From Dehalococcoidia bacterium (GTDB taxonomy: Bacteria; Chloroflexota; Dehalococcoidia; UBA6926), in the NCBI GenBank assembly GCA_045562535.1, contig JBJKVP010000008.1, positions 21,180-85,179 on the forward strand: a DNA stretch of 64,000 bases, read 5' to 3'. The notes under the pieces were generated by a model. The model ran no database searches. It was not told the origin of the DNA and was given only the letters and a program-made list of their open reading frames with translations. Each line of letters opens with the position of its first letter. Within the stretch, counting starts at the first letter, position 1. The translations under genes and the position numbers were made by a program. This document shows positions 2,932 to 14,852 of this stretch, piece by piece.

Positions 2932-3780
2932 CTATTTGTTTTGCCAGTTCGGCGCCCGCTTTTCAGCAAAGGCAAGAGGCCCTTCTTTAGAATCTTCAGA
3001 ACCACCAACTTGCTTATTCACCCAATCGCTAAGTTGATAATGTTCGTTAATTTGTAGGTTCCTCCAGTAGTTAGCTACCGCCTTAACTCCTTGAACCGCT
3101 ATAGGTGCATTTTCACAGATCATCTTTGCGATCTCGATCGCCCGAGGTAGAAGATCATCGGGTTCAACTACTTCGTGGACCAATCCCATTCGAAGAGCGA
3201 CCTCCGGTGTAATCCTATCACCTGTGAGTCCAACGTACATTGCTTCACCAAAAGCGACCAGACGTGGGAGAATATGCATTCCCGAGCCAGGCATAATCCC
3301 TCTCTTTACTTCAAAAAGGCCCATGTAGGCTTCTGTGGAAATAATTCTAATATCGGCATCGATTGCTCGTTCAGTTCCGCCTCCAACTGCTAAACCATTT
3401 ATAGCCGCTATTATCGGCTTAGGAGACCTAGAAAAAGAAAACAACGATCCAATTGGGCCGCCTTGCTGGCCGCCTGTAATTCTGTAGAGTTCTTTTGCTC
3501 TCTCATCTCCATCAATTTCGCCTTTGCTAAATTTTTCATTAACCTCGGCGATTTGAGTGTTCCGTCCACTCATCTCTCGAAGATCTGCTCCGGCAGAAAA
3601 AGCGCGACCATTTCCGGTCACAATCCCAGCCCACATTTCTCGATCGTTATTGAAATCATGTAAAGCAACATTGAGTTCTTCGTTCATACTGCCGCCCATA
3701 GCATTTAGCGCCTGAGGACGATTCATCGTGAAAACCGCGTAATGTTCTTCTTCGTTTTTCTCATAAAGTAAGTCAGCCAT
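2932..3780 (-). CDS. enoyl-CoA hydratase/isomerase (crotonase) family protein
   Basis: 282 aa. Crotonase motifs FSAGADLREM and AAINGLAVGGG. Confidence 0.85.
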   Translation of the reverse strand: MADLLYEKNEEEHYAVFTMNRPQALNAMGGSMNEELNVALHDFNNDREMWAGIVTGNGRAFSAGADLREMSGRNTQIAEVNEKFSKGEIDGDERAKELYRITGGQQGGPIGSLFSFSRSPKPIIAAINGLAVGGGTERAIDADIRIISTEAYMGLFEVKRGIMPGSGMHILPRLVAFGEAMYVGLTGDRITPEVALRMGLVHEVVEPDDLLPRAIEIAKMICENAPIAVQGVKAVANYWRNLQINEHYQLSDWVNKQVGGSEDSKEGPLAFAEKRAPNWQNK

Positions 3781-3899
3781 AATCCCCCCAAATTGTTTTA
3801 TGTTAGAAGCCTTAGATTAGGTTGCAACCATGGTTCTGTCAAGGTGCACGCCGTAAACTTTGGCTATATATCATTAATCTACAGCCAACTGCCTCAAAC

Positions 3900-11762: not shown

Positions 11763-11999
11763 TCATTCTGTAGGTAGTATATTTATTGAGAAAATTGATC
11801 CTTCTTGATTCGGAATAACTCGGCACCTAACACCTTTTTTTAATGCATTAGGAAGAGAATATGTAGCAACAATCCTCGCATTTGTTATTGCCGTAGTTGC
11901 AACACCTTGCGTTGCTTTTATGATAGCTTGATCAATAAACTCCAGTTGCTCTTGCACAGGCCGTTCATTTATATCAACTCCGTGTTCATTTGCTTCCAT
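11763..11999 (-). CDS. hypothetical small protein translationally coupled to yeeE (possibly a small S/Se-relay accessory)
   Basis: 78 aa. Its ATG starts 1 nt after the yeeE TAA. No motif I can assign with confidence. Confidence 0.4.
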   Translation of the reverse strand: MEANEHGVDINERPVQEQLEFIDQAIIKATQGVATTAITNARIVATYSLPNALKKGVRCRVIPNQEGSIFSINILPTE

Positions 12000-12000
12000 T

Positions 12001-13248
12001 TTATGGAAACCTCTTTATCCACTGGACACTTATATATGATCCGACGGCAAGTCCTAGGGCGTATACCCACCCATTCAATGCCAACGACGGAACGGCCGAG
12101 AAAAATGCCCCCAGTGTACATCCAAGGCCTAAGCCGGCCCCATAACCCATAATGGTCCCACCCACTATAGATTGTAGATATCTAACGGGTGATCTCGGTA
12201 TACGCAATTTAAATTCTCGAGCAAAAATTGCTGATGCAGCTGCACCAGCTACTATTCCTACATTTAAAAAGAACGTTTCAGTAAACCAACTACCGCCTTC
12301 TACTACTACGGCTGCACACGCACCTAAGCCATCCATACCTTTTAGATCAACTGGAGGGACGCCAAAAAGATTAACGAACGAAGTTGACCATCTTGATATT
12401 TCTCCAACAACTCCAAGAGGGTGGAACCTTATGAACAAAACGATATTAACAACAGCCAATATAATCCCGCCGACTATAGGGCTCCATTCTGTTCTAAAAA
12501 TGCTCTTCAAATTACCAGTTATTTCACCAATAGTACTCGTTGGAGTTTCTTCAACAGTTAACTTTTTTATCTCTGGCATGACAAAACCGGCAGTTACTCG
12601 TCTCTCTCTTGCTAAAGCAACGTAGAAGATCACTAAAAGTCCTACTGCCGTTACAAGCAATGCCCCTGAATATGTAATTTCCGCGGGAATCCATACTGCG
12701 ATTTCTTGGGAGATTAAATTATCCCACCACCAGTTCCATGTATTGTTAAGAAAGAATAACCCTACCATAACGCCCAATATGGCCACCCAGGAACCAACGT
12801 AGCCCTCGCCCATCCTGTAGAGTGAGCCAGAAACACAACCACCGGCTAAAACCATTCCAATACCAAATAAAATACCCGCGATTAATGTTGATAACCCTAC
12901 AGGAAGCACATGGGCATCACTCGGGAATGCACCAAACCCAGGGTTTGGCGACACCGTGCTCATTATCATTACAAATCCAACTGAAGATACGGCTAGCCCC
13001 ACCAATATGCCTTTTATCATTCTAGTCTGACCCAAAAGGAAAAAATCTCTAAACGCGGAAGTAAAACAAAACCTGCTGCGTTGTACTGTAACTCCAAATA
13101 CGACACCAACAACCCAATATATCGCTGCTATAGGTTGATCGGTCACAGATAGTATGACTACCAAGCCAGTTATAAAAATAATGGTTGTCCATACCCAAAA
13201 GGAGTAGTTATTGATTTTAAACCGATTTATATCAGTGATATTTTGCAT
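12001..13248 (-). CDS. yeeE: YeeE/YedE-family thiosulfate (sulfur/selenium compound) transporter
   Basis: 415 aa polytopic protein with duplicated halves carrying the conserved Cys motifs SRFCFTSAF, GGCVSGSLYR and LGLGCTLGAF. Confidence 0.85.
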   Translation of the reverse strand: MQNITDINRFKINNYSFWVWTTIIFITGLVVILSVTDQPIAAIYWVVGVVFGVTVQRSRFCFTSAFRDFFLLGQTRMIKGILVGLAVSSVGFVMIMSTVSPNPGFGAFPSDAHVLPVGLSTLIAGILFGIGMVLAGGCVSGSLYRMGEGYVGSWVAILGVMVGLFFLNNTWNWWWDNLISQEIAVWIPAEITYSGALLVTAVGLLVIFYVALARERRVTAGFVMPEIKKLTVEETPTSTIGEITGNLKSIFRTEWSPIVGGIILAVVNIVLFIRFHPLGVVGEISRWSTSFVNLFGVPPVDLKGMDGLGACAAVVVEGGSWFTETFFLNVGIVAGAAASAIFAREFKLRIPRSPVRYLQSIVGGTIMGYGAGLGLGCTLGAFFSAVPSLALNGWVYALGLAVGSYISVQWIKRFP

Positions 13249-13294: not shown

Positions 13295-13330
13295 AAAAAG
13301 GTACGCCCCCTAGCATAACATAGGGGGCGT
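13295..13330 (-). terminator. intra-operon intrinsic terminator between rhodanese and yeeE
   Basis: On the minus strand, a 10-bp stem ACGCCCCCTA/TAGGGGGCGT (13330-13321 / 13312-13303) is followed by ACCUUUUUAA. Confidence 0.6.
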
Positions 13331-13378
13331 AACCAGTTACCTAATATAAGGTAACTCTAGTGTGGCTAGCAATTTGAT

Positions 13379-14320
13379 TTAGGAATCAATAGGAGTATCT
13401 TCTCGATTTCCCCACTCAGTCCATGATCCATCGTACACAACGACGTTGTCATAACCTAAGAGGTCGCTCAGGACGAACCAACTATCTGTCGCTCTCACTG
13501 CTGTCTGACACAAAGTATAAATGTCTTGGTCAGTTCCTACCGCTGCAGCAGTATAAATCTTAGATAGCTCTTCAGCGCTCAAGAATGTCCCGTCTTCAGC
13601 ATGGTTGTTAGTCCACTCAACATGAACTGATTCAGGGATATGACCGCCTCTTTCTGCTCTGACATCACGGCCCGCATATTCATCGGCGCTTCTAGTATCT
13701 ACTACCAATTTAGTTGGATCTCCAATAGTTGCAAGGGTATCTTCCAAGGAAGCTACGAGACCAGGATTTGGCTCACCAGTAAATTCATATGAACTTGCCG
13801 ATATATTAGGTACATCGGTAGTAATTTCTTTACCTTCAGATTCCCAAAGAGCTATAGCACCATCCATCATTCTCGCATCTTCGTGACCATATACGTCAAG
13901 CGTCCATAGGAACCTTGTTGACCATAAATTTTTGATATGATCATATATGATAATAGTATCTGTAGACGATACACCCAAAGCGCTCAATTTAGCGGCTATA
14001 TCTCCCTCAGAAGGAATCACTCCTTTAACGCCATCTCTTTCTACTTGTAGTTCGGATTTATCATAGTTAATTGCCCCGGGAAGATGCCCTGCGGCATAGT
14101 CTTCACCTTTACGAATATCAATGATGACAACATTTTCATTATCCAAATTTTCATTAACCCAATCTGTGGAAACAAGTCGGGCAGTCGAAGCATATCCTCT
14201 ATCCTCAAGAGAAGCATCGGAAGCTACCTCGTTCCCTGCACATGCTCCAGTAATTAGCAATCCTAAAATTGCCAACCCGCCAAGGCTAATTTTTAAAACT
14301 TTACTCGAAAAAACCTTCAT
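13379..14320 (-). CDS. exported tandem-domain rhodanese (thiosulfate sulfurtransferase), lipoprotein
   Basis: Signal peptide with lipobox LITGAC, two rhodanese domains, catalytic loop CQTAVRA. Confidence 0.85.
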   Translation of the reverse strand: MKVFSSKVLKISLGGLAILGLLITGACAGNEVASDASLEDRGYASTARLVSTDWVNENLDNENVVIIDIRKGEDYAAGHLPGAINYDKSELQVERDGVKGVIPSEGDIAAKLSALGVSSTDTIIIYDHIKNLWSTRFLWTLDVYGHEDARMMDGAIALWESEGKEITTDVPNISASSYEFTGEPNPGLVASLEDTLATIGDPTKLVVDTRSADEYAGRDVRAERGGHIPESVHVEWTNNHAEDGTFLSAEELSKIYTAAAVGTDQDIYTLCQTAVRATDSWFVLSDLLGYDNVVVYDGSWTEWGNREDTPIDS

Positions 14321-14351: not shown

Positions 14352-14588
14352 TTACTTAAATAAGTGAATTTTCCATTCCCCAGCTGCAACTTCTTCTATT
14401 TCACAACCATATCCACGTTTCATCGCTTCAGGCGGAATAGTTGACAGGGCAGGGGGATGATCCGTAAGAACATCAAGCGTTTGAGGCGCAGGATCTCTTC
14501 CATCAAGTTCTTTATTTGTGCGAATCATTGGATACGGGCATATTTCACCTCTGACATCCAGTAATTCAACGGTTAGTTCATCTGACAT
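14352..14588 (-). CDS. tusA: TusA/YedF-like sulfurtransferase
   Basis: 78 aa with the CPYP (CPxP) active-site motif. GAGGAGAG SD. Confidence 0.85.
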   Translation of the reverse strand: MSDELTVELLDVRGEICPYPMIRTNKELDGRDPAPQTLDVLTDHPPALSTIPPEAMKRGYGCEIEEVAAGEWKIHLFK

Positions 14589-14616
14589 TCCACTCTCCTC
14601 ATAAAATATTTTTTAC

Positions 14617-14653
14617 AAAAAAAAACCCCGCCTTGTTAATTCAAGGCGGGGCT
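14617..14653 (-). terminator. strong intrinsic terminator upstream of tusA (candidate attenuator terminator)
   Basis: Minus strand: CCCCGCCUUG-AAUUAA-CAAGGCGGGG (10 bp) followed by nine U. It ends about 12 nt before the tusA SD. Confidence 0.8.
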
Positions 14654-14673
14654 AAATCCAAATTTAAAGAATA

Positions 14674-14772
14674 TTATTCCCGCGACAACATCATACAGCA
14701 GCAAGCCTCGACCGAATTCTCTATTCGGTCCTGGCGTACAACCTTTATAATATTTGTACTAGGTTTAGTCAT
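14674..14772 (-). CDS. candidate leader peptide MTKPSTNIIKVVRQDRIENSVEACCCMMLSRE
   Basis: 32-codon ORF absent from the ORF track. AGGAAG SD 6 nt upstream of the ATG. Codons 24-28 are UGC UGC UGU AUG AUG. The stop lies 20 nt before the terminator. Confidence 0.55.
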   Translation of the reverse strand: MTKPSTNIIKVVRQDRIENSVEACCCMMLSRE

Positions 14773-14823
14773 CTTCTACTTCCTAGACCATAACTGTGTT
14801 TCGTACGATCTAACTTGTTCAGA

Positions 14824-14852
14824 ATTCTACTGGGTATACTAAATTATTGCAA
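14824..14852 (-). promoter_or_regulatory. sigma70-type promoter for the leader and tusA operon
   Basis: Minus strand: TTGCAA (14852-14847), 17-nt spacer, TAGAAT (14829-14824). Confidence 0.6.

Follow-up and report, generated by a model that had tools for sequence, protein, structure and literature searches.

A candidate cysteine-codon transcription attenuator upstream of a tusA-rhodanese-yeeE operon in Dehalococcoidia

Introduction

Why does a strong intrinsic terminator, preceded by a small open reading frame (ORF) with three consecutive cysteine codons, stand directly upstream of a sulfur operon and in the same orientation? The question is raised by a stretch of 64,000 nucleotides (nt), here called the window, from an uncultured marine Dehalococcoidia bacterium of the phylum Chloroflexota (assembly GCA_045562535.1, contig JBJKVP010000008.1, positions 21,180 to 85,179). 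The leader in question lies on the minus strand of the window, upstream of the genes tusA, rhodanese and yeeE. An initial annotation had interpreted it as an attenuator that responds to Cys codons, and this interpretation is supported by the recurrence of a Cys-run ORF and a terminator in diverged relatives whose leader peptides are otherwise unrelated. With a probability of about 0.8, the leader is a ribosome-mediated transcription attenuator through which the availability of Cys-tRNA controls the tusA-rhodanese-yeeE operon.

Architecture of the leader

The promoter, Shine-Dalgarno (SD) sequence, ORF, Cys and Met codons, hairpin and U9 tract listed in the initial annotation are all present on the minus strand. 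The predicted promoter consists of the -35 hexamer TTGCAA (14852-14847), which is kept in the sister strains and in the relative L154, and the -10 hexamer TAGAAT (14829-14824), with a 17-nt spacer between them. The -10 hexamer would place the transcript start at about 14817. This promoter had been called near-consensus, but it matches the consensus at 9 of 12 positions and such matches occur at shuffle frequency (12 found vs 13.5 expected), so the match is by itself no evidence. The predicted 5' untranslated region (UTR) of about 45 nt contains the SD sequence AGGAAG (14784-14779), located 6 nt 5' of the AUG. In the window lineage the same region (14773-14817) has a stem-loop of its own (UUAGAUCGUAC.../...GUUAUGGUCUAG).

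The leader ORF (14772-14674) starts with ATG and contains 32 codons and a stop (MTKPSTNIIKVVRQDRIENSVEACCCMMLSRE). The putative regulatory Cys codons UGC UGC UGU (14703-14695) are adjoined on the 3' side by two Met codons, AUG AUG (14694-14689), the role of which is uncertain. The G-run GCGGG (14683-14679), within codons 30-32, is the predicted 5' strand of an antiterminator. The terminator is composed of the 5' arm AGCCCCGCCUUG (14653-14642), the loop AAUUAA (between 14642 and 14635) and the 3' arm CAAGGCGGGG (14635-14626), and the segment CCCGC of the 5' arm (14650-14646) would also be used by the antiterminator. The attenuated transcript is predicted to end in the U9 tract that follows (14625-14617). 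The terminator stem has 12 pairs, 8 of which are G-C, and ends 29 nt before the tusA ATG (14588); the hairpin alone folds with a free energy of about -23 kcal/mol.

A chance juxtaposition of ORF, Cys run and terminator has a negligible probability. The motif TGYTGYTGY is not rare in itself, with 8 occurrences in the window vs 3.0 +/- 1.7 expected (the remaining seven are out of frame within genes), and the promoter match is at chance level. However, the joint event, which requires an ATG-initiated ORF of at most 60 codons, CCC at most 15 codons from its stop, and a hairpin with T6 no more than 90 nt away, was counted once in the window and not at all in 200 Markov-1 simulated windows, and the architecture recurs in many diverged loci. 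Cysteine accounts for 0.65% of the residues across the 44 long ORFs of the window, and CCC is found in none of these. The terminator is the strongest among the terminator-like sites in the 11.5-17 kb region (10 sites found vs 4.5 expected), and the leader folds more stably than shuffled sequences (z = -5.9).

Rfam 15 was searched with the leader at E values up to 10 and with the whole window at gathering scores. No family reached its gathering score on the window leader, and the whole window yielded tRNAs only. The sub-threshold matches (GcvB, trpB motif, L10 and Trp leaders) were rejected as terminator-driven; they include Trp_leader, with 18 bits vs a gathering score of 41, and GcvB (RF00022), with 25.9 bits (E = 0.0014) vs a gathering score of 42. 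The GcvB match, which comes from UGUAUGAUGUUGU plus the terminator, belongs to an alternative in which the promoter-to-terminator unit is an independent, trans-acting GcvB-like small RNA (sRNA) of about 200 nt that works via its GU-rich stretch, the ORF being incidental. Such an sRNA would have its own predicted promoter, a strong terminator and the strong fold noted above, and one preprint describes the terminated attenuator RNA rnTrpL as acting in trans elsewhere (bioRxiv 10.1101/606483). Against it, the GcvB score is below the gathering score, a gcvA context is lacking and the host is from a different phylum. Moreover, the leader types described below share Cys coding and frame, whereas the nucleotide sequence of the GU-rich stretch is not conserved among them, and the element is always sense-oriented and directly upstream of sulfur genes. 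An independent sRNA is therefore very unlikely; a secondary trans role of the terminated leader is possible.

Leader types in diverged relatives

The contigs of TusA homologues at 65-91% identity were inspected for related leaders. At least five other leader types, with ORFs of 14-32 codons, were found before tusA or the rhodanese gene in related marine Dehalococcoidia. Every type keeps a terminator and, close to the C-terminus, a Cys cluster; the N-terminal sequence and the length vary. The cluster, which is the sole peptide feature common to all types, reads CCC, CCCC or CSC across types A, A2, B, B2, C, C', D, G and H, and its codons include the synonymous variants UGU UGC UGU, UGU UGU UGU and UGC UGU UGU. 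The reading frame is open in 27 of 27 distinct leaders, compared with 66-78 stops in the other two frames over the same nucleotides. In an alignment of 12 type C sequences, all indels are multiples of 3.

Type B (L106-110 and L115; TusA 74-81% identical) has ORFs of 15-17 codons (MNNISSNLTTRGCCCMR, MIKFSSNLMTCCCMR and MIKLSSNQMTCCCCMR) with the peptide pattern M..SSN..T(C)CCCMR, followed by about 35 nt, a CCCCGCC...GCGGGG-U8 terminator and tusA. Type C (L111-114; TusA 77%) has a 30-codon ORF with the end FRCSCMS, and type C peptides as a whole contain about 30 residues and end in ...CSCM[NS]. Type D (L012 and L124-127; TusA 65%) encodes MK[IT][HY]SFHICCCTGR and is located between tusA and the rhodanese gene. 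Its layout is trp-like, in which pairing 1:2 is ACCGGUCGC/GCGGGGCGGU, followed by U8, pairing 2:3 is GCGGGG/CCCUGC and pairing 3:4 is the terminator. The type D unit of about 137 nt, composed of the CCC ORF and two hairpin/U8 elements, differs in copy number between L124 and the group of L125-L127 and L012, being single in one strain and a tandem duplicate in the others.

Additional leaders were identified in metagenome contigs with a pattern consisting of [C/S]-C-M, a gap and a CCCCG..CGGGG-T6 terminator, which contains no information on tusA. The scan gave 79 matches, and 18 of the 79 lie 0-33 nt upstream of a TusA homologue (74-84% identical). Types A2, B2 and G and many variants of type C were gained in this way. 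Type A2 (L154; MKEQQIKFIKIISVMPSVTTKDACCCMDSVRE) has 32 codons, an N-terminus unrelated to that of the window ORF and the same ACCCM..RE end (...DACCCMDSVRE), type G (L188; MILNIDCTYIVLSTCCCMY) ends in ...STCCCMY, and type B2 is represented by L169. Type H (L196) precedes the ferredoxin-sulfite reductase gene of a Cyclobacteriaceae-like bacterium. As a negative control, a CCC-plus-terminator pattern was applied to viral contigs and gave 38 matches, none with this architecture or with tusA; these are 3' ends of phage structural genes and similar sequences.

Type C' leaders (...NCSCM[KE]) are carried by L134, L144, L152 and probably L198. Their RNA is homologous to that of type C and shares its G-run, middle hairpin and terminator. 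The gene 3' of type C' in the three readable loci (L198 is unreadable) is not tusA; it is an XRE-family HTH_3 gene of about 285 aa. This location hints at a small regulon of putative Cys attenuators.

The conserved frame bears on a second alternative, in which the ORF encodes a functional Cys-rich micropeptide (metal/sulfur-binding or membrane) and the hairpin is a partial terminator or an RNA stabiliser. The frame is open in every distinct leader, K-Y recurs at residues 6-7 in type C, and leader peptides with trans functions exist, e.g., peTrpL (PMC7298713). On the other hand, the peptides contain 14-32 residues, and no residue beyond the Cys cluster is common to the types. The comparison of close strains points in the same direction. 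All 10 contigs with identical TusA carry the window-type leader, and the ORFs of two strain groups differ by D15G, S20L and S30P (P4T in some) and by two synonymous changes. The nonsynonymous vs synonymous count between these near-identical strains is thus 4 vs 2, all outside the Cys run, so that the peptide beyond the Cys run is without visible purifying selection. The internal leader hairpin is retained between the strain groups via G-U wobbles, and the leader SD sequence reads AGAAAG in the L001-type strains. In type C, codons 5-8 form a 9-pair helix with the G-run region (94% paired, one-sided changes only), which explains the recurrent K-Y. A micropeptide, which would also leave the constant spacing between Cys codons and G-run unexplained, is hardly probable.

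A third alternative is a terminator/antiterminator switch controlled by a metabolite or a protein, in which the small ORF is not the sensor. The leader is highly structured, the G-run and the C-run could pair irrespective of translation, and sulfur genes elsewhere are controlled by riboswitches, with S-adenosylmethionine (SAM) aptamers in L196 and L210. However, the leaders of nine related loci, like that of the window, gave no Rfam family at threshold, save the unrelated SAM aptamer in L196. There is no common aptamer-like fold, the 5' parts are wholly different, and the type B ORF has only 15 codons. We regard such a switch as quite improbable. The sRNA, the micropeptide and the ligand- or protein-controlled switch all fail on the same three observations, i.e., conservation of the Cys codons only, an open frame with indels in multiples of three, and constant spacing.

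Pairing geometry and proposed mechanism

The spacing was measured by RNAduplex without a positional prior. The terminator 5' arm was compared with the whole 77-135-nt leader in nine leaders, representing types A, A2, B, B2, C, C', D, G and H. In all nine, the segment that pairs best with the arm starts 11-14 nt downstream of the last Cys codon, measured from the first base of that codon, with duplex energies of -8.4 to -11.5 kcal/mol. In the window, this search picked exactly the GCGGG that had been proposed initially as the partner of CCCGC (14683-14679 with 14650-14646, -10.9 kcal/mol); counted from the same base of that codon, GCGGG starts at nt 15 and the G-runs of all types start at 13-16 nt. 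The G-run, which reads GCGGG, GCGAGG, GGGG or GCGGGG, is found 10-12 nt past the last Cys codon in all types. The stop codon is 3' of the G-run in types A and H and 5' of it in types B, C, D and G, and the spacing is unaffected. Under uniform placement, a positional coincidence of this kind would have a probability of about 1e-5 to 1e-8 if the types are independent, a rough figure because the range of offsets was chosen with the data in view and a common origin of types A, B and G is possible.

It is known from ribosome profiling that a bacterial ribosome covers about 12 nt from the first base of the A-site codon. The helix would therefore begin just beyond a ribosome stalled on a Cys codon. 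A ribosome that has reached the stop codon is predicted to cover the G-run, which is the classical geometry of trp-type attenuation. The Met codons, which the initial annotation had counted as part of the signature, fit this geometry less well. An AUG in the A site already puts the ribosome edge over the G-run start, so that Met sensing is doubtful. Of the types identified independently of the pattern scan, A, B and C have a Met directly after the Cys run and D does not.

The antiterminator pairing that had been proposed appears in folds of partial transcripts, in which the G-run pairs with the C-run when the RNA ends before the 3' arm. Compensatory changes are present in the terminator stems of the relatives. 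In the minimum free energy structure of the window leader, the Cys codons pair with codons 7-13 of their own ORF.

In the proposed mechanism, transcription would start upstream of 14784, at the predicted start, and a ribosome would translate the 32-codon leader. When Cys-tRNA is ample, the ribosome would pass UGC UGC UGU and cover GCGGG (14683-14679) on its way towards the UAA. With GCGGG covered, the arm at 14653-14642 could pair with 14635-14626, the polymerase would terminate at U9 and the operon would be off. When Cys-tRNA is scarce, the ribosome would stall with a Cys codon in the A site and its 3' edge about 12 nt downstream, leaving the G-run exposed. The exposed G-run could then pair with CCCGC (14650-14646) once this is transcribed, the terminator stem would be blocked, and transcription would read through into the operon. 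If the leader is not translated, termination would probably be favoured by a long hairpin in which the 5' half of the ORF pairs with the region of the Cys codons and the G-run. The sequence elements in this scheme, their conservation and, in silico, the pairing geometry are those observed; we infer from them where transcription starts, that the ORF is translated and that the switch responds to cysteine.

Observations against the attenuator

Several observations weigh against the attenuator or weaken its support. The predicted -10 has a 3-nt deletion in the L001-type sister strains, giving TAGTCT, which adds to the doubt about a near-consensus promoter. The expected conservation upstream of tusA was found in several diverged lineages, but it does not extend to some loci with closer TusA. 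Two such clusters, P0002 (TusA 91% identical) and P0003 (83%), have short intergenic regions without the leader, and the same is true of the nearest GTDB species representative, L011 (rhodanese 64% identical); the element is thus patchy. The pattern used in the metagenome scan forced a Met after the Cys run and the terminator core, so in the scan matches neither of these is independent evidence; they count as such only in types A, B and C, to which the pattern did not lead. Cys/Met-rich small ORFs (MSEKTSSQKFMCCMCAIF... and MMIIMICYCCCKN) followed by terminators were also found upstream of rhodanese homologues in L031 (2744-2890, Aggregatilineales) and L076 (2108-2235, Cellvibrionaceae); the spacing in these two differs from the rule, and they are unconfirmed.

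The remaining points concern the RNA. The antiterminator has 5 bp in the window and 5-9 bp across the types, and its -10.9 kcal/mol stands against about -23 kcal/mol for the terminator. The antiterminator pairing seen in partial transcripts does not prevail in full-length folding with a simulated ribosome, where the terminator always wins and the two states are not discriminated, so that only the partial-transcript folds are informative. Because the terminator wins at equilibrium, the decision must be kinetic, as in other attenuators. Covariation of the antiterminator is the main gap in the evidence. All its pairs are invariant in type C, with zero covariation, and in type B there is one compensatory event, an A-U to U-A change between type B (GCGAGGAAU:AUUCCCCGC) and L169 (GCGAGGAUU:AAUCCCCGC), which is not significant (188 of 500 shuffles were as good).

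The survey of TusA clusters gave no leader in P0045 and P0076. The 80 loci of GTDB species representatives reached via the rhodanese are mostly from distant phyla and were uninformative. Clusters P0006 and P0089 were rejected as leader relatives since their copies are phage-borne and without the leader. These copies (L101-L105 and L120-L123), with TusA 83% (P0006) and 67% (P0089) identical to that of the window, are found on phage-like contigs next to genes for prohead protease S78, Sipho_Gp157, SNF2 helicase, Cpn10 and NadA, with no Cys leader. P0006 and the cellular TusA of L154 cluster together at 90%, which suggests an auxiliary sulfur-transfer gene acquired from these hosts.

A possible wider class of leaders and composite leaders in Cytophagales

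The evidence tilts, by a modest degree, towards the window element being a member of a widespread, undescribed class of cysteine-sensing, terminator-based attenuators with a shared footprint geometry. Under this reading, uncultured marine Dehalococcoidia, which are abundant, would use the class to control reduced-sulfur acquisition (tusA/rhodanese/yeeE) and an XRE-type regulator gene. The class would likewise control a sulfite-reductase operon in Cytophagales (Bacteroidota), where it would stand behind a SAM riboswitch and integrate methionine/SAM and cysteine status.

The Cytophagales leaders contain a SAM riboswitch, two poly-Cys ORFs and a single terminator, followed by sir-cobA-cysG-cysH. 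They span 1069-1500 in L210 (Marinoscillum sp.) and about 3460-3851 on the minus strand in L196 (Cyclobacteriaceae-like). The SAM aptamer (RF00162) is located at 1069-1179 in L210, with 70 bits, and scores 68 bits in L196. The poly-Cys ORFs of L210, MKKQNILKLEDKHHLIGAVCCCCCCR and MSTRPNFQILITTICCACCMCCACCICTIQSRIQL, contain 6 and 9 Cys codons, respectively, and the second of them obeys the Cys-to-G-run spacing rule. Those of L196 are MKSNRYKLLQVNISFSLKERCCCYC and MSSIQLTLTILLTNTCICCRAMMCCMLSRG. One leader may thus sense both SAM and Cys-tRNA. No paper on a composite leader of SAM riboswitch and poly-Cys ORF was found in the literature.

The downstream operon

The operon genes named in the initial annotation were confirmed by Pfam as encoding TusA, a two-domain rhodanese and a YeeE-type Sulf_transp protein, all on the minus strand. 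The first regulated gene, tusA (14352..14588; PF01206), encodes a YeeD/TsuB-like sulfurtransferase. It is followed by the gene for the two-domain rhodanese (13379..14320; PF00581), for which an N-terminal lipoprotein-type signal (LITGAC) was read from the sequence. NCBI lists this protein as 'MAG: sulfurtransferase [Dehalococcoidia bacterium]', and its identity to actinobacterial rhodaneses is about 39%. The gene yeeE (12001..13248; PF04143, Sulf_transp; YeeE/YedE family protein at NCBI) encodes a yeeE/tsuA-type sulfur (thiosulfate) transporter. YeeE and YeeD form a thiosulfate uptake system that serves sulfur assimilation (PMC11073785), a function that fits control of the operon by cysteine supply.

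A 78-aa ORF without a Pfam match (11763..11999, minus) adjoins yeeE and is kept 3' of it in L001-L009 and L091-L095; the operon probably ends with this ORF. The gene divergent from the operon encodes a GSDH dehydrogenase according to Pfam. The gap between the rhodanese gene and yeeE contains an 11-pair G+C-rich hairpin (13302-13331, minus) followed by a weak T-run, CCTTTTT. It may terminate part of the transcripts within the operon, or act in RNA processing or stability, and in this way adjust the tusA-rhodanese to yeeE ratio.

Significance

Attenuation with a terminator has been established with Trp, His, Leu, Thr, Phe and Ile/Val as the sensed amino acids. What is known for cysteine is a translational system in mycobacteria, together with uncharacterised predictions for cysS, and a conserved, terminator-based family with Cys codons would fill this gap. 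If expression follows the charging of Cys-tRNA, the operon would serve sulfur assimilation through thiosulfate-type import and not energy metabolism. Such an assimilatory role would bear on the reduced-sulfur supply of streamlined marine heterotrophs. The constant Cys-to-G-run spacing is a simple searchable signature for more attenuators in metagenomes, and the Cytophagales leaders suggest composite sensing of two sulfur amino acids.

Comparison with known systems

Cysteine-responsive attenuation has been demonstrated experimentally for the polycysteine leaderless small ORFs of mycobacteria (Ms5788A/Rv0815A; Canestrari et al. 2020, bioRxiv 10.1101/834739). The Ms5788A operon includes cysA2, a rhodanese-type thiosulfate sulfurtransferase (bioRxiv 10.1101/834739), which belongs to the enzyme family of the second gene in the window, and the Cys run is at the 3' end of the small ORF in both systems. 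The mycobacterial system is translational, in that the Cys tract pairs with the SD sequence of the next gene and there is no terminator, whereas the window has a strong terminator. The Cys codons of the window are predicted to pair with the 5' half of their own ORF, and the tusA SD sequence is located beyond the terminator. The mycobacterial ORFs start leaderless, unlike the window leader with its predicted 5' UTR and SD sequence. A -10-like hexamer 6-9 nt before the ATG in L106, L154 and L031 would be compatible with leaderless starts.

Attenuation at Cys codons has also been predicted outside mycobacteria. The uORFC-8-2 motif upstream of cysS in Rhodobacterales is a predicted attenuator with an intrinsic terminator (Brewer et al. 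2021, PMC8632094), and a 10-aa leader with two Cys residues is predicted for cysS of Deinococcus deserti (PMC4007540). These cysS leaders, both computational predictions, share tandem Cys codons and ribosome-mediated attenuation with the window leader, but they have two Cys codons, target a cysteinyl-tRNA synthetase, occur in other phyla and have no sequence relationship to it. Candidate Cys leader peptides have been described for the cys/cbs operons of Actinobacteria (Seliverstov et al. 2005, PMC1262725), where short ORFs with Cys-codon runs near the stop likewise precede sulfur-assimilation genes. Terminator hairpins are missing there and Rho-dependence was proposed, whereas the terminator is the most conspicuous part of the window leader. 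The initial claim that Cys-codon leaders were known only from mycobacteria was therefore somewhat overstated. It holds for the genes and the phylum, as no report of a Cys leader was found for tusA/yeeE, for Chloroflexota or, in addition, for Bacteroidota.

The mechanism itself is textbook; what has not been described is cysteine as the amino acid sensed, the phylum and the regulated genes. The trp, his, leu, thr and pheA attenuators of Proteobacteria (Yanofsky model) share with the window leader an upstream ORF with a run of the sensed codon near its end, an intrinsic terminator before the first gene, and an antiterminator strand that a stalled ribosome would leave free and a terminating one would cover. 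The window leader differs from them in that cysteine would be sensed, the host belongs to Chloroflexota, the genes are for sulfur import and transfer and not for biosynthetic enzymes, the antiterminator is very short (5-9 bp) and there is no above-threshold sequence or Rfam similarity. The type D leaders have even the full layout of 1:2, 2:3 and 3:4 pairings.

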